From a virus (lineage: Duplodnaviria; Heunggongvirae; Uroviricota; Caudoviricetes), in the IMG/VR virus record IMGVR_UViG_2681813318_000014: 21,605 nucleotides of DNA; one strand, given 5' to 3'. Below are positions 8,261 through 18,232 of this stretch, in pieces. The translations under genes and the position numbers were made by a program. The notes beneath the pieces were generated by a model. The model saw only the letters and a program-made list of their open reading frames with translations. It was not told the DNA's origin and made no database searches. Position 1 is the first letter of the stretch; every line of letters begins with the position of its first letter.

Positions 8261-9574
8261 TTAACTTACTGATTTTAATAAGCCTCTGGTGTCACTTTGG
8301 TGACTATGGGGCATCATTGGGACATAATCTGTCAGCTTCTGATTCAGCATTGCGATCTGTTCTGCATTGCTGTCAGTCATCCATGCTCCGTATACATTGA
8401 ATACCATCTGGGCACTTGCATGGCCCATCTGGCTGGCAATGAAGCTTGGGTTTGCTCCGGCAGATAATGACCAGCACGCATAAGTGTGTCGTGACTGGTA
8501 TGCCTTTCGATGCCTGATCCCTGCACGCTTAATGGCTGTTTCCCATGAGTCACCTACAGAATCGACTTTGTAGACAAAACCTACCTGTTCGCTTTTTCTA
8601 ACCACTTGAGGGTTAAACACGAAAGTACATTCATGGTTCACTGAACGTCCATATTCACGTAGTTGCACCTTGATGTTGTACTGCTTACCCAGTCTTGTCA
8701 TTTCAGCCTGATTTTTCAGGACACTGATAGCGGGCTGGATAAGGTGCACAACCCTGTTTGTGCTTGCTTCAGTTTTCGGTAGAGTGAACTCACCAAGTTT
8801 CGTATAATTGCGCCTGATGGTAATTGTTCCTGCCTTCAGATCGATATCTTCCCAGGCCAGGGAGACCAGTTCACCGTGACGCATTCCTGTGTACACAGCC
8901 AATGACCACAGGTTTTTCGTCTGCTGATGTCGGCAAGCATCTATCAGGCGAATAAATTCGTCACGAGTTAGCGGATCTGGCTCTGCCCTGGCTCTTTTAA
9001 GAGGCTTAATTCCCTGGAAGGGATTTGCTTCTAAGTAACCGTGATCTGCAGCAAACTGAAACATTCCAGCGATTGTCGTCATGTAATAATTTACAGTAAC
9101 GACGCTCCGTCCTTTTGCTGCTGCTTTGTTTTTCGTTGAATTCTGATACCCGGTAAGCAAATCTTTCCTGATATACAGCAATTCCTCTTTGGTTACCGAT
9201 GACACCAGTCTACTGCCTCCAATTTTCGGAACCATCGTTCTTGCAACGGATTCATAGCGATTGAATGCATTTGCAGAGATTTCCATTCGTTTCAGATCCA
9301 GCCACTTTTCTTCAAGTTCCTTCACCGTAATTTCTTTTTTACTTACCCCAAAAGCCTGAAGGTTGGGGGAGTCAGGGAACTGTGCAGCATAATCAAAGCT
9401 TCCTGTGCGGATGGCAAAACATACTGATGTCCGCAGTTCCCCGGCGATCTTCCTGTTCTTGGCAGTGTCAGGGACACCAAGATTTTCCCTGACACGTTTA
9501 CCGTTAAAATTAAACCAGATGCGTAATGTGCCGCCGTGGTTTTCGACGCCTGTTGGATATTTGACTTTATCCAT
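8261..9574 (-). CDS. int: phage tyrosine integrase (437 aa)
   Basis: C-terminal catalytic-region residues consistent with a tyrosine recombinase (AYQSRHTYA..., ...VYGAWM); N-terminal arm-type domain; GGAGGT RBS; immediately downstream of an excisionase-like gene on the same strand. Confidence 0.85.
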   Translation of the reverse strand: MDKVKYPTGVENHGGTLRIWFNFNGKRVRENLGVPDTAKNRKIAGELRTSVCFAIRTGSFDYAAQFPDSPNLQAFGVSKKEITVKELEEKWLDLKRMEISANAFNRYESVARTMVPKIGGSRLVSSVTKEELLYIRKDLLTGYQNSTKNKAAAKGRSVVTVNYYMTTIAGMFQFAADHGYLEANPFQGIKPLKRARAEPDPLTRDEFIRLIDACRHQQTKNLWSLAVYTGMRHGELVSLAWEDIDLKAGTITIRRNYTKLGEFTLPKTEASTNRVVHLIQPAISVLKNQAEMTRLGKQYNIKVQLREYGRSVNHECTFVFNPQVVRKSEQVGFVYKVDSVGDSWETAIKRAGIRHRKAYQSRHTYACWSLSAGANPSFIASQMGHASAQMVFNVYGAWMTDSNAEQIAMLNQKLTDYVPMMPHSHQSDTRGLLKSVS

Positions 9575-9629: not shown

Positions 9630-9866
9630 TCACCTGGGTTGTTTGTTTTTCATTGAGGCGACCCAGGCATCTATTGCTTTTCTGTTATACATACATTCAC
9701 TGGAAGGCTTTGGATTACCGTCTGGTGATACGTGAATATACTCTCTTCCAACCATCCAGCATTCTTTCCGGGCCCGAAGAATTGTGCCTGGTTTGAGCCC
9801 GGTAATTGCGATAAGAACGCTTTCACAAACCCATTCATTGGGAGCCAGTTGAATCACATTGCCCAT
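9630..9866 (-). CDS. xis: excisionase-like protein (78 aa)
   Basis: Small basic protein directly upstream of int on the same strand; TGAGG RBS; resembles the lambdoid-prophage excisionase-like family from memory. Confidence 0.55.
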   Translation of the reverse strand: MGNVIQLAPNEWVCESVLIAITGLKPGTILRARKECWMVGREYIHVSPDGNPKPSSECMYNRKAIDAWVASMKNKQPR

Positions 9867-10271: not shown

Positions 10272-10355
10272 TTATCCCCAGCGGCAAATCGAATACACCA
10301 TCAGCGTCACCGCCATCGCAATTCCTACCGTTGTTAATGCTTCAGGCCAGGTCAT
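10272..10355 (-). CDS. possible 27-aa hydrophobic peptide ([27 protein letters not shown])
   Basis: ATG overlaps upstream stop (ATGA at 10352-10355); GGAGG RBS 10 nt upstream; single transmembrane-like segment. Confidence 0.3.
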
Positions 10356-10696
10356 CGTAAAATATCCTCCACGCTTATCAGTCCGTTCCGCTCCAGATAA
10401 CTCATCGCCTTATCCGGTAATTTGCAGTCTGGCTTCGCTTTCCTCAGTTGCCAGGTTAACTGCTTTACCAGCATGGTTAACTCATCGACCAGACGCTGAT
10501 ATCCCACTGGTTTGTATTCATGCAATTTACCGGCTGGCTCTGCTGCCAGCGATACCAGTGCGATTTCCAGAACAGCAATATCCATCTTATATGTGCGGAT
10601 GATGTCATGGTCGATTGTACCCGGTATGCACAGTCTCTGTGCTTCAATAGTCTCCTCTGCGTGAGCTATTAACTGCTCTCTGGTAAAAGTCGTCAT
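10352..10696 (-). CDS. hypothetical phage protein (114 aa), paralog of the next gene
   Basis: ATG 10696 in ATGA overlap with upstream stop; AAGGGG RBS; shares the [10 protein letters not shown] motif and a 29-bp DNA repeat with 10693..10878. Confidence 0.55.
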
Positions 10697-10878
10697 GCCG
10701 TAGCCCCTTCTTGATATTTTTCAAACCAGAACACAACCGGCTCTGCTTCCAGCGATACCAGTGCAATTCGTGCCAGTTCTTCCGCTTCTTCTGCTGGCAG
10801 TACAACGTTGCTACCCGGTCCGTATGTTTCGCGCCACTGCTTGATTGTCAGCAGTCGCCCTTTGGTAATAGTGATCAT
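10693..10878 (-). CDS. hypothetical phage protein (61 aa), paralog of 10352..10696
   Basis: ATG 10878 in ATGA overlap; AAGGAA RBS; motif [10 protein letters not shown]. Confidence 0.5.
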
Positions 10879-11390
10879 GCCGCGTTTCCTTCTTTCTTAT
10901 TAACAATCACACCGTCATATATTTCATTAAGGTGCCCTCTCAACTCCATGCGCCTTAATGCAGATAACATGTAATCGCATTCAACCTGCTTATTCCCAGT
11001 AAATGGCTTATCGTCAGGATTACCCCAACAGCAATTACCCCTGGGCCATCCATGTACTTTCCGTACTCTTCCGTTAACAACGTGAAGTAATCCCCAGCCG
11101 GGAGGTAAATCCTCAACTGAAATAATTTCCGGCTCACTAATAAAGAATCGCCAGTCGCCCATGCCAAGTGAGGGATTTTTACGGAAACGCTTTTTTCTAT
11201 CTGCCAACAAGTCAGCACGAGAACACTTCGCCTCTATCAGGCATGATGCTGAATTTCTGAATCCCATAGCATCTGGCTGTTCTCCGGTACTGGTTACAGC
11301 AACAAAGCGGTCATGAAAGCAAACCTTGAACCCGTTGCGCTTAAGGAACTTGTACGCAATCTGACAGAGTTCGTGGTGTGTTAACGCCAT
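10875..11390 (-). CDS. putative PD-(D/E)XK nuclease, MmcB-like (171 aa)
   Basis: Start moved to ATG 11390 (AAGGAG 6 nt upstream; track start 11423 is TTG); motif DAMGF...CLIEAKCSRADLLAD...DWRFFISEP fits the D...E-x-K nuclease core of the MmcB-like family as recalled. Confidence 0.55.
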   Translation of the reverse strand: MALTHHELCQIAYKFLKRNGFKVCFHDRFVAVTSTGEQPDAMGFRNSASCLIEAKCSRADLLADRKKRFRKNPSLGMGDWRFFISEPEIISVEDLPPGWGLLHVVNGRVRKVHGWPRGNCCWGNPDDKPFTGNKQVECDYMLSALRRMELRGHLNEIYDGVIVNKKEGNAA

Positions 11391-11391
11391 A

Positions 11392-11877
11392 TCACTCTCC
11401 TTTGATGCGAATGCCTGTTGCAATGCTGTTTATGATGCTGTCAGTGCATGGGGTAGAAAGCTGGGCATCTCCAGCAATTTTCATGACCTCAACATCTGCA
11501 TATCGAATACCGAGGTGTATCAGACCGGCTATGCCTGACTTAAGCCGAGCATTTTCCATAAATAGAACTTTTGCCCGCTGTTTTTCTGCTTCAAGCTCAA
11601 CGCGCAGCTTCCCTACCGTTAGCGCAATATCCTCGTTCTCCTGATCGCGGCTTTTGATGTATTGCAGGTTTCTTTCCCGTTCATCCAGCAGTGCCAGCAC
11701 GGTTTCTGGTCCGGTCAGAAATTTGAAGGCGTTGAGCGCATCAATATCCACACCGTAATCTTTAAGTTCCTGTTCACTTAACAAGTCATCATCAGCTGGC
11801 AACATTAACAGGCGTTCCATTGCTGGAATTGCACGTTCCGCCACCTCACGCAGTGCCTGGTAATTAATTTCGCTCAC
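11392..11877 (-). CDS. Ea22-like early protein (161 aa)
   Basis: GTG start at 11877 with AAGGAGG RBS 6 nt upstream; N-terminus MSEINYQALREVAE is characteristic of the Ea22-like family in lambdoid phages; GTGA overlap with upstream stop. Confidence 0.55.
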   Translation of the reverse strand: MSEINYQALREVAERAIPAMERLLMLPADDDLLSEQELKDYGVDIDALNAFKFLTGPETVLALLDERERNLQYIKSRDQENEDIALTVGKLRVELEAEKQRAKVLFMENARLKSGIAGLIHLGIRYADVEVMKIAGDAQLSTPCTDSIINSIATGIRIKGE

Positions 11878-12380
11878 TGGTTGCCTCCTTTGCGAAGCTG
11901 GGCAGCAAAGTCAACTAACCACTCAGTCATTTCAACCTTCCCTACCAGGTCTGAACCAGGGTACATACAGCAATCACTCTGCGCCGCTTTGAAATCCTTA
12001 TACTCATATTCTTGGGCCACCAGATTTTTTGCAGCTTCTATAGCAGCGTCCACCCCCTGCGCCCGGACTTCAGCCAGGAAAGCATCAGTGGTTGGCGTTT
12101 CAGGTATCTGTCTCCTCATCCGTTCTATTGCATGATTGAACCCGAAGTCTTCCGCGAGAGATACGTCATCCATATTGTCATTGTCATCCTCAATATCCCG
12201 TGATTCTGGAATTGCAGACTTTATTCCCGCATTCTCCGCTGCCAGCGCCGCGCACTTGGCCTCAAGAGCGGCAACCACTTCCTGATGGTCTTTGTACTTA
12301 ACGTATGAGCCGGAGATGTCATCACCTTCGGTGTTTAGCCATGCGTCATTGCAATTCACTGCGTAGGTTCTGATGCTCAT
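11874..12380 (-). CDS. acidic hypothetical phage protein with coiled-coil segment (168 aa from the internal ATG)
   Basis: ATG 12380 with GGGAGAG RBS, in ATGA overlap with the stop of 12377..12559; the track's longer 208-aa version begins at an upstream ATG without an RBS. Confidence 0.5.
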   Translation of the reverse strand: MSIRTYAVNCNDAWLNTEGDDISGSYVKYKDHQEVVAALEAKCAALAAENAGIKSAIPESRDIEDDNDNMDDVSLAEDFGFNHAIERMRRQIPETPTTDAFLAEVRAQGVDAAIEAAKNLVAQEYEYKDFKAAQSDCCMYPGSDLVGKVEMTEWLVDFAAQLRKGGNQ

Positions 12381-12559
12381 GTTGATGCTCTCCCGCCCCT
12401 GACAGACGCCAGGCCAGTCAATAAAGTATCCGCAATGCCTACCCTCAGACGTGCGCGCAGGATAAATGCCGTTATGACCCGGCAAATATATGCTACCCAT
12501 TCATCTTGCGTTGCCTGTTCCGCCGCCTCGCGCAGTGCCTGATAGTCAATCTTGCTCAC
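12377..12559 (-). CDS. short Ea22-like N-terminal-module protein (60 aa), possibly a recombination remnant
   Basis: GTG 12559 with AAGGAGG RBS; the first about 22 residues (MSKIDYQALREAAEQATQDEWVA) match the Ea22-like N-terminus, the rest is low-complexity; its 5' region is a DNA paralog of the 11877 gene start. Confidence 0.35.
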   Translation of the reverse strand: MSKIDYQALREAAEQATQDEWVAYICRVITAFILRARLRVGIADTLLTGLASVRGGRAST

Positions 12560-12860
12560 TGGCAGCCTCCTTTGCCGGGATTTCTAACTTTTGAGTGGTT
12601 GTATCAAATTCAAACAACTTAACCACGTCATCAAACAGGACATAATCACCATCAGGATCTTCAGTCATATCTGCGCCACAATCCTGACCGCACGAGTCGC
12701 AACCATCCATATCAAGCTCGTATCGCTTCAGGTTTGCGATATTTGATAAATTCAGCGCCAGTACAGCCAGGTCATAAACCTCTTCGGCAGTGACATCGCT
12801 GTTCAGTCCCATTTCATGGCGATATATGATTTTTTCTACTCGTTGTTTTGTGATCGTCAT
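12546..12860 (-). CDS. hypothetical phage protein (104 aa)
   Basis: Start moved to ATG 12860 (GGAGTG RBS 9 nt upstream); acidic C-terminus. Confidence 0.5.
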   Translation of the reverse strand: MTITKQRVEKIIYRHEMGLNSDVTAEEVYDLAVLALNLSNIANLKRYELDMDGCDSCGQDCGADMTEDPDGDYVLFDDVVKLFEFDTTTQKLEIPAKEAASEQD

Positions 12861-13131
12861 TTTTCTCTTCACTCCGATATACAAGGATTACTACACCCCC
12901 TCTGCTGATTGCGCGAGCTGGATCCCCTGGTTCCATGCCGTCAATTCCGAAGGCTTCGGAAAACGCATTCATTGCCTTCTGGCGTTCATCCTGCTTACGG
13001 CGTTTATTCCATTTTTTCAGGAACAACAGCGACAGCCACCGTCCGCTGCAGAACACGATGTAAAAATAACCAAGGAGCGCCAGGCCGACATTCAGGGCCG
13101 TTTCTATGGTTAGTTGTGAGTCAGTTGCCAT
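12814..13131 (-). CDS. small predicted membrane protein (105 aa)
   Basis: ATG 13131; N-terminal transmembrane-like segment LNVGLALLGYFYIVFCSG followed by a basic stretch KKWNKRRKQDERQK. Confidence 0.4.
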   Translation of the reverse strand: MATDSQLTIETALNVGLALLGYFYIVFCSGRWLSLLFLKKWNKRRKQDERQKAMNAFSEAFGIDGMEPGDPARAISRGGVVILVYRSEEKNDDHKTTSRKNHISP

Positions 13132-13369
13132 TTCTTACCTGTTTAAGTAACTGGTTGAACATAACACTTAGGGGATTGCTGTATCCAAACGGCAGATTGT
13201 TTACGCAGTACAGAATCATTTTGTTTTTTTCTCCAGTTCGTACTATTAACCCATTCCACAATAACCGTGATAATTCATTACTGATAGAAGTTGCGCTTCT
13301 TCCAAGTGCGAGGGATATATCTTCTCTACTGCAATCTGGATTTTCCTGGATATACTCGATAACGGTCAT
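13121..13369 (-). CDS. small winged-helix/HTH-like protein (82 aa)
   Basis: Start moved to ATG 13369 (AAGGGA RBS right after the upstream stop); segment CSREDISLALGRSATSISNELSRLLWNGLIV looks like an HTH. Confidence 0.45.
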   Translation of the reverse strand: MTVIEYIQENPDCSREDISLALGRSATSISNELSRLLWNGLIVRTGEKNKMILYCVNNLPFGYSNPLSVMFNQLLKQVRNGN

Positions 13370-13379
13370 GTGGTCCCTT

Positions 13380-13961
13380 TTACTTAATATCTGTTTCGGA
13401 TTGCATGCCATGAGTATTCATTTCGTTAATAATTTCATCCAGAAGGATTTCAAGCCCTTCTCGACCCATATCTGAAAGAATGAAACCTTTATCAGGGGAA
13501 GTAGTGAGCATTTTCTGATAAAGAAACAGCGCTCTTCCCATTCCTTCAGCTTCGCCGTATTTTTGAATTAAATTCCATTCAATATACTGTTGTAAGGCAA
13601 ATCGAATGGGGCCGGGATATATCGTCATAAACCCATACATCCCGTTATATACCACGGCGTGTTCAGTTGTTCCGTGTTCATTCAGGATATCAATTGTGCC
13701 GTTCTTGTCTTCTTCTTCGTTGATGAATGTCGTCACATACAACCATCGCCACTGAGCAACCTTCATCTCAACCGGAAGTTTACCCAGTAATCCTGCTTCG
13801 TCGGCTTGCGCCAGACACTGAAGGATACGTAAACCTCGCACATTAGGAGTATCGAATTCTCCGGCATCCAGACGACGTATGGCGTCGTGATAATCAATCG
13901 TCATACTGCCAGTTCGTATACCATTGGCTGTTGCTTCAGCCTGGAATTCATCGTATTGCAT
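13380..13961 (-). CDS. hypothetical protein (193 aa)
   Basis: ATG 13961 with GAGGAA RBS 8 nt upstream; no recognised motif. Confidence 0.55.
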   Translation of the reverse strand: MQYDEFQAEATANGIRTGSMTIDYHDAIRRLDAGEFDTPNVRGLRILQCLAQADEAGLLGKLPVEMKVAQWRWLYVTTFINEEEDKNGTIDILNEHGTTEHAVVYNGMYGFMTIYPGPIRFALQQYIEWNLIQKYGEAEGMGRALFLYQKMLTTSPDKGFILSDMGREGLEILLDEIINEMNTHGMQSETDIK

Positions 13962-17847: not shown

Positions 17848-18232
17848 TCACTCAACATCAATAACGGGGAGCTGTTTCGCATAAAACGGCTCCGAAACAT
17901 CCAAGAACAGTTCTAAAGATATCAGCAGCTATATGATCATTTCAAGACCAAATATTGATTCTGCAATTTCGGGACGTTACACTGTCTCTGCACCTTATAA
18001 AGCGGGTGCCGGGGGTCGCAGCCCGGAATTGTCAACGGCGATATATGACGCGCCAGCGTCTTTTTTATCGTCCGCGCTCACGCACGCCAGAATTATGGTG
18101 GGCTGGGCAGGGGAGCCGAAAGGCTCGCCGGTCTCCGTTGACGCCGGTACTGCGAACCCTGTTCAGTCTGCCACCAGTGAGTTTCGCAGCTCCGGTGGTG
18201 GAAGTTTTCCACAGTCAACGGAGGCTGCCATC

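Follow-up and report, generated by a model that had tools for sequence, protein, structure and literature searches.

In the 21,605-nucleotide (nt) stretch of Caudoviricetes DNA held as IMG/VR virus record IMGVR_UViG_2681813318_000014, here referred to as the window, a 60-codon open reading frame (ORF; positions 12377 to 12559) ends on the start codon of a 168-codon gene (11874 to 12380), which in turn overlaps a 161-codon Ead/Ea22-like gene (11392 to 11877). All three, like every other gene relevant to this locus, lie on the minus strand. We describe here that the 60-codon ORF is best read as a remnant, left by a recombination event that fused the 5' part of an Ea22-like gene to a foreign sequence and by the later loss of a single base, and that the 168-codon gene would be the functional unit, equipped with its own ribosome binding site (RBS) and ATG. 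To this account as a whole, with the three steps described below, we assign a probability of roughly 0.68.

Origin of the 60-codon ORF

Alignment of near-identical loci revealed that strain BEC1-S17-ESBL-09 has TTTT where the window has TTT (12484 to 12486; AAA on the plus strand) and that its gene is annotated as intact, with 228 amino acids (aa). When one T is added to the window at this site, a 228-aa Ea22-like protein results that is 100% identical to WP_033877702.1 (P0001 in our set), so that a single indel restores the full-length homologue of an intact protein, as in a frameshifted pseudogene. The in-frame TTTT form is the commonest allele in Escherichia coli. From the ORF list, the profile match and the gene tails described below, the 60-codon ORF, or stub, consists of 25 native Ea22 codons followed by 35 out-of-frame codons. 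The first-pass annotation had named a single-base indel restoring one continuous Ea22-like frame as the result that would overturn its view of the locus; such an indel does exist, but the deletion did not arise in assembly, and the 228-aa frame, though continuous, is itself secondary.

This last point emerged when cluster representatives were searched exhaustively by HMMER, with the restored protein as the query. At least 30 clusters (50% identity) contain proteins of 135 to 232 aa whose residue 1 aligns with residue 61 or 62 of the query. These stand-alone proteins start with M(S/K)I(R/N/K)TYAVNCNDAWLNTEGDDISGSYVKYKDHQ and then continue into many different C-terminal bodies, while other clusters match only query residues 1 to 58 and run on as canonical Ea22-like proteins (GYFIDWPG-IDGQRNAGANARYIAA). 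The 168-aa product is therefore not the C-terminal body of an Ea22 protein, as had been considered at first: many other phages have genes of its type for which this Met is the start.

A three-way DNA comparison of IMG/VR loci located the joint. Before and after it, a canonical Ea22 gene reads GACTGGCCTGGC / ATTGATGGG (also given as TTTATTGACTGGCCTGGC / ATTGATGGGCAAAGG), a stand-alone locus reads CAGTGCCTGGC / TTCTGTCAGGGGCGGGAGAGCATCAGCATGA (also TTCAATCAGTGCCTGGC / TTCTGTCAGGGGCGGGAGAGCATCAGCATGAGC), and the window reads GACTGGCCTGGC / GTCTGTCAGGGGCGGGAGAGCATCAACATGA (also TTTATTGACTGGCCTGGC / GTCTGTCAGGGGCGGGAGAGCATCAACATGAGC). The window thus follows the Ea22 parent up to the 7-nt microhomology GCCTGGC (12408 to 12414, minus strand) and the stand-alone parent beyond it, with an Ea22-like 5' part ending in FIDWPG on one side and a 3' tail ending in QCLASVRGGRASA and a stop codon on the other. 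At the stand-alone loci, the ATG is preceded not by intergenic DNA but by the 3' end of another gene, here referred to as X, which is MarR-like (phrog_1687), ends in NPLNNLFNQCLASVRGGRASA and has a TGA that overlaps the ATG. The same tail with its ATGA is common to X ORFs that themselves have at least four different bodies. Because the 3' end of X supplies the leader after the joint (12381 to 12407), the linker VCQGRESIN of the in-frame allele is the X tail translated in the wrong frame, whereas the last 11 codons of the window's stub, LASVRGGRAST, are the native frame of X up to its original stop. An RBS-like GGGAGAG (12388 to 12394) lies within this leader, 9 nt before the ATG.

Megablast comparison of a stand-alone locus with E. 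coli genomes was consistent with the same joint: every alignment starts at the G of GCCTGGC and none reaches upstream, and the stand-alone arrangement of X followed by a gene of the TYAVNC type was not found in complete E. coli genomes. A scan of one genome per species for the X-tail cassette gave a single match, in Leclercia adecarboxylata, where it precedes a different gene (MSKATYLDD...); the X gene there looks frameshifted itself. The X-tail cassette, that is, NPLNNLFNQCLASVRGGRASA and its stop codon with the ATGA, is a conserved junction in its own right (loci L061, L081 to L085, L093, L094, L100, L101 and L190). A homologue of X is also present in the window, as a MarR-like gene (phrog_1687) at 13121 to 13411 with the related tail NPLSVMFNQLLKQVRNGN, and the stop codon of this gene overlaps the next one, a DUF4752 gene at 12814 to 13131.

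Judged by these comparisons, the 228-aa frame is a chimera of codons 1 to 50 of a canonical Ea22-like gene and the last 33 bases of the unrelated gene X, joined at GCCTGGC, and three steps can be read from the forms recovered. In the ancestral state, still seen in other phages, X ends in NPLNNLFNQCLASVRGGRASA with its TGA overlapping the ATG of a stand-alone M(S/K)I(R/N)TYAVNCNDAWL... gene. Recombination at the 7-nt GCCTGGC then replaced the body of X with the RBS, the GTG start and codons 1 to 50 from a canonical Ea22-like gene; this stub happened to be in frame with the downstream gene, and the resulting 228-aa fusion is now the commonest E. coli allele. In the third step, seen in the window, the change from TTTT to TTT at 12484 to 12486 put the stub into the old frame of X, so that it ends at the old TGA of X on the ATGA. 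This stop/start overlap (12377 to 12380) is accordingly an inheritance from the ancestral gene pair.

Frameshift alleles of the stub

We next consider how often the frame is broken and where. A 90-nt segment of each haplotype was matched exactly against the 235 E. coli records holding the segment, which gave 145 records with the in-frame TTTT, about 33 with a TG insertion (CATTGTGCGG), about 20 with a GGG-to-GG deletion and 8 with the T deletion. A fourth frameshift, a single-G deletion, comes from viral contig L026. The four independent events (deletion of T74, of G81 and of G91 and insertion of TG126) cluster in a 55-nt part of the first 130 nt of the gene; all are of the -1/+2 class, all enter the frame of X and all end at the TGA of the ATGA. 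Stub frameshifts are found in about 26% of the E. coli records and about 45% of the close viral loci.

A difference of one base in a T run invites the suspicion that a short homopolymer was misread or misassembled and that the DNA really has TTTT and a continuous frame. However, the exact T3 haplotype is carried by 8 independent complete E. coli records and 4 IMG/VR contigs (L028, L029, L031 and L034), and the deletion is for this reason real. In addition, a run of three or four T's is atypical as an error site, and the other alleles break the frame at different positions. On the recurrence of the haplotype we reject this explanation, which we regard as very improbable.

Two overlapping frames encoding parts of one protein family are also the anatomy of a recoding site, at which ribosomal frameshifting or transcriptional slippage would produce the 228-aa protein from the T3 allele beside the 60-aa product. 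Against this, there is no in-frame X XXY YYZ heptamer at GTA GCA TAT ATT TGC CGG (GTAGCATATATTTGCCGGG), the T run of 3 nt is far below slippage-prone lengths, and the other alleles shift the frame at unrelated positions. No stimulatory structure was found either, the RNA fold across the joint and the ATG being unremarkable (z = 0.7). Programmed frameshifting and slippage were therefore rejected, and we give them next to no weight.

Which product matters

For counts of Met61, the start codon of the 168-codon gene within the fusion, against reading frame, the viral loci carrying the stub were de-duplicated. Among loci that retain Met61, 10 are in frame and 21 are frameshifted, and the 168-codon body is complete in all 21 of the latter. 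Where Met61 is lost, by a 6-nt deletion or, in the 224-aa form P0111, by a 12-nt deletion, 13 loci are in frame and only one is frameshifted (L102, in which the body is also broken). The association between the presence of Met61 and the frame has a Fisher p of 2e-4, uncorrected for relatedness. Furthermore, 4 of about 6 distinct first-hit alleles lie in the 180-nt stub, which makes up 26% of the gene (binomial p = 0.044), and body-disrupting alleles are rare singletons (a nonsense mutation in L047, L059, L102 and a G5-to-G4 change in two T3 genomes). Taken at face value, these patterns favor the view that the body must be translated, via its own ATG or via the fusion, and they suggest that the stub is dispensable where Met61 is present.

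A competing explanation is that this is a plain pseudogene, that the 228-aa protein is the functional form, that the window carries a null allele created by the 1-nt deletion, and that the 60- and 168-codon ORFs are meaningless fragments. This is how the Prokaryotic Genome Annotation Pipeline (PGAP) reads DNA identical to 12559 to 11874 in several complete E. coli genomes, which it marks as "ead/Ea22-like family protein, frameshifted". Thousands of contigs carry the in-frame allele, the most frequent of all; Met61 is unconserved among in-frame variants; and the carriers AR_0372 and Nord58 have a second frameshift in the body. On the other hand, four independent frameshifts at high frequency are confined to the 180-nt stub while body-disrupting alleles stay rare, diverse stand-alone homologues begin at the same Met behind the same leader, and variants without Met61 are almost never frameshifted. 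A downstream frame free of selective maintenance is not what we see, given the intact bodies in 21 of 21 loci and the Met61 association, with the caveat of the second body hit in two genomes. We consider the null-allele explanation unlikely, though not negligible.

Several observations count against our own interpretation. The Fisher test ignores shared ancestry, and four frameshifts sharing one frame class has a chance probability of about 0.06 to 0.12. In AR_0372 and Nord58, both carriers of the T deletion, the second 1-nt deletion affects the G5 run of the 168-codon body; since these and other body-disrupting alleles (L047, L059 and L102) exist, the gene is dispensable in some lineages. Moreover, the 228-aa in-frame allele is in the majority and in-frame variants without Met61 (226 and 224 aa) are common, so that the fusion is tolerated at the very least, and in E. 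coli it may be the form that functions.

With these reservations, we favor the 168-codon gene as the functional unit, translated from its own GGGAGAG and ATG. Termination at the stub ORF followed by reinitiation probably helps this translation, and the 60-aa peptide would be a by-product. The ATGA overlap and the GGGAGAG 9 nt before the ATG form the arrangement of a coupled gene pair, which is present likewise in the ancestral X/TYAVNC pairs. The overlap between the stop of the 60-aa ORF (TGA, 12377 to 12379) and the start of the acidic 168-aa protein (ATG, 12378 to 12380) had been reported by the first-pass annotation and was confirmed. That annotation had left open whether the short ORF was a remnant or one half of a genuinely split gene; the confinement of frameshifts to the stub and the intact body favor the remnant. 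An ancestral two-gene split of an Ea22 gene was rejected.

A more speculative idea is that the return of the stub to the frame of X has been selected repeatedly, in at least four independent events that are all of the -1/+2 class. Termination at the ATGA would thereby be restored, a 60-codon leader ORF would deliver ribosomes to the 168-codon gene, and a harmful N-terminal half-domain would be removed, while deletion of Met61 would be the opposite resolution that locks the fusion. We think this improbable on present data; if true, the locus would represent a natural replicated experiment in resolving a new gene fusion.

PGAP treats the alleles of this locus in four ways in RefSeq (L001 to L005): the in-frame form is a 228-aa coding sequence (CDS), the T3 form is a "frameshifted" pseudogene, the TG insertion yields CDSs of 61 and 168 aa, and the G deletion yields overlapping CDSs of 60 and 182 aa. 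Our data suggest that annotations should retain the 168-codon gene in alleles with an out-of-frame stub.

The duplicated 5' cassette

The stub and the 161-codon gene are headed by two copies of one sequence. A repeat search of the window, with which a pairwise alignment agreed, identified a direct repeat of 65 nt (11829 to 11893 and 12511 to 12575), with 54 of 65 positions identical (83%); by the binomial tail (p = 0.25), 54 or more matches have a probability of 1e-22. A degenerate pattern of AAGGAGG, 6 nt, GTGAGC and the first codons matched twice in the window and not at all in 100 shuffles. Both copies encode MS(K/E)I(D/N)YQALRE(A/V)AE after a GTG start that abuts or overlaps the stop codon of the preceding gene. 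The upstream copy comprises the last codons of the preceding gene, the RBS AAGGAGG (12566 to 12572), the GTG (12557 to 12559) and the first 15 or so codons (MSKIDYQALREAAEQ), and it maps to positions 1 to 25 of PF13935 (Ead_Ea22). In the downstream copy, the tail of the 168-codon gene (...AAQLRKGGNQ and its stop) is followed by the RBS AAGGAGG at 11884 to 11890 and the GTG at 11875 to 11877, which overlaps the TGA of the 168-codon gene as GTGA (11874 to 11877); MSEINYQALREVAER comes next.

Paired homologous 5' regions of this composition had been noted before, with limits (11839 to 11895 and 12520 to 12575) that prove to be about 10 nt off at the edges and are otherwise right. The repeat and the twice-only pattern bear out the pairing, and the module is indeed a shared 5' cassette heading Ead/Ea22-family genes, in agreement with the PF13935 match. 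Its further description as a mosaic boundary holds insofar as the cassette acts as a junction adjoining many different upstream genes across E. coli, but the informative joint is the 7-nt microhomology at 12408 to 12414 and not the cassette.

A search with the 65-nt cassette alone gave 4345 matches, distributed over 2535 of 5426 E. coli genomes with as many as 13 in one genome and located almost always at the 5' end of an "ead/Ea22-like" gene. The genes upstream of it include Lar, TraR/DksA, DUF2737, a methyltransferase, other Ea22 copies and more. A 1.6-kb query around the locus was covered to at least 80% in only 28 of 2785 matching records, which indicates heavy mosaicism. The cassette takes in the last codons of the preceding gene, and TYAVNC proteins whose bodies are unrelated have the tail AAQLRKGGNQ in common. 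The cassette is probably the translation-initiation region and N-terminal helix of the family, which would serve incidentally as a homology patch for exchange among Ea22-like genes.

Family membership and protein models

Profile match and genomic position both place the 168- and the 161-codon genes in the Ead/Ea22 family. Against PF13935, for which the gathering score is 27 bits, the 161-aa protein scores 108.8 bits (profile positions 1 to 139), the restored 228-aa protein 102.2 (1 to 138), the 168-aa protein 43.3 (48 to 138) and the 60-aa ORF 38.8 (1 to 25). No NCBIfam family was matched by any of these four proteins, and a PDB sequence search with the restored 228-aa protein gave chance-level matches only (E of about 0.9).

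The 168-aa protein (MSIRTYAVNC...AAQLRKGGNQ) has an isoelectric point of 4.36, with 32 D/E and 16 K/R residues. Its AlphaFold2 model (mean predicted local distance difference test [pLDDT] score, 75.7) consists of a coiled-coil helix and a confidently predicted helical C-terminal domain (residues 96 to 165); the N-terminal 28 residues have low confidence. Foldseek comparison of the model with the PDB gave nothing below an E value of 2.9, and the structure therefore offers no functional hint. TYAVNC-family proteins (L008 to L109) show three conserved islands amid hypervariable blocks, their bodies being otherwise unrelated: an N-terminal TYAVNC...AALAAEN, a central TPATDAFLAEVRAQGVD and a C-terminal AAQLRKGGNQ. 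These islands may serve as motifs in function or may anchor recombination. In addition, the TYAV segment can be aligned with GTYAVHTPGD of canonical Ea22 N-domains.

A C-terminal K/RGE motif of Ea22 proteins has been noted previously (PMC7093339). The 161-aa protein has this terminus (...IKGE), and its terminal KGE codons, AAAGGAGAG, are here simply the RBS of the next gene. The annotation of E. coli SF-088 starts the 161-aa gene further downstream, which shortens it to 142 aa.

Operon context and other features of the window

DNA identical to this part of the window in E. coli SF-088 encodes an integrase (8261 to 9574), an excisionase (9630 to 9866) and a LexA-family repressor (about 15.5 to 16.1 kb), and all intervening genes are on the minus strand. 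The locus thus falls between the immunity region and xis/int of a lambdoid-type prophage, in the leftward early operon, whose genes are chained by overlapping stop/start cassettes; this is also where Ead/Ea22 genes are expected, between recombination/immunity genes and xis-int. The gene preceding the stub (12546 to 12860) encodes a 104-aa protein of phrog_3126, a family of unknown function, and extends to a stop 14 nt into the stub ORF. A promoter/terminator scan of 11300 to 13500 detected no minus-strand promoter-like site, and terminator-like matches were weak and not meaningfully above expectation. Since there is no such promoter nearby, the 168-codon gene is presumably read from the operon transcript. 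An Rfam scan of the whole window gave no match in the cassette and stub region.

In a megablast search with the whole window, no complete E. coli genome was found to contain it; only 8.0 to 15.0 kb is identical to SF-088. The SF-088 integrase abuts yecE, whereas the left 7.8 kb of the window matches tape measure protein and recombinase regions of other strains. In E. coli, plasmids of 90 to 120 kb, which resemble P1-like phage-plasmids, carry about two thirds of the copies of the chimeric gene.

Immediately after the 161-codon gene, a continuous 171-codon ORF (10875 to 11390, minus strand) follows, for which the terminal KGE codons supply the RBS. Its match to phrog_9263 is limited to profile positions 62 to 230, and on identical DNA, PGAP marks 11212 to 11390 as "frameshifted" and 10744 to 10878 as "incomplete". 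This ORF may be another truncated or rearranged gene. A second direct repeat (10536 to 10565 and 10739 to 10768; 30 nt, 93% identity) lies inside the adjacent small minus-strand ORFs 10352 to 10696 and 10693 to 10878, both of which encode ...ALVSL(A/E)AEP... and look like another paralogue or remnant pair of the cassette kind.

Further away, Rfam matches above the gathering score were obtained on the plus strand for isrK (17990 to 18066; 58.7 bits) and C4 antisense RNA (18091 to 18178; 78.8 bits). Such a pair points to an antirepressor of the prophage under antisense control of the P1/P7 type. A related strain, from which the window differs at this place, has Rha-family regulator genes in the corresponding region.

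Comparison with known systems

The Ea22 proteins of lambda and Stx phages favor lysogeny, and a tetrameric assembly and pro-lysogenic function have been shown for them, that is, for other members of the family (PMC7093339, PMC10834534). The genes described here belong to the same Pfam family, which the 161-aa protein matches end to end, and they lie likewise in the early-left operon upstream of xis/int. The layout of a short N-terminal segment, a coiled coil and a variable C-terminal domain is also shared, and mosaicism with a common N terminus and coiled coil has already been described for Ea22 (PMC10834534). In contrast to those proteins, the upstream gene in the window has only 50 canonical N-terminal codons, fused via a foreign leader to a helix-less member, and the C-terminal domain of the 168-aa protein is without a PDB relative by sequence or fold.

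With regard to mosaicism and the modular genome hypothesis, "flanking, short and conserved sequences" have been proposed as exchange substrates in lambdoid phages, and RecET acting on 5 to 13 bp has been cited in this context (PMC2327257). Similar to such junctions, the 65-nt conserved cassette flanks many neighbors, and the 7-nt joint, which is separate from it, agrees with short-homology or illegitimate recombination (PMC2327257). The cassettes in the window differ in that they consist of coding sequence and translational signals, namely, a gene tail, an RBS and the next start. A further difference is that the parental and recombinant forms are all recoverable here, together with the later frameshifts. 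The ATGA (12377 to 12380), the GTGA (11874 to 11877) and the RBS inside upstream coding sequence are also those of coupled overlapping phage genes, except that coupling at the ATGA would here join a remnant ORF to a real gene.

The locus does not represent a new kind of system and does not reveal the role of the Ea22 family, but it should be of some use for the study of how accessory genes of temperate phages are reshuffled. Its value is mostly that of a guide to gene annotation and of a clear case example. It is an unusually complete mosaic event, with both parents recoverable, a 7-base joint and two opposite follow-up outcomes. Taken together, it is a known kind of event that is cleanly resolved: a lambdoid mosaic fusion whose redundant 5' stub later decayed by frameshift.

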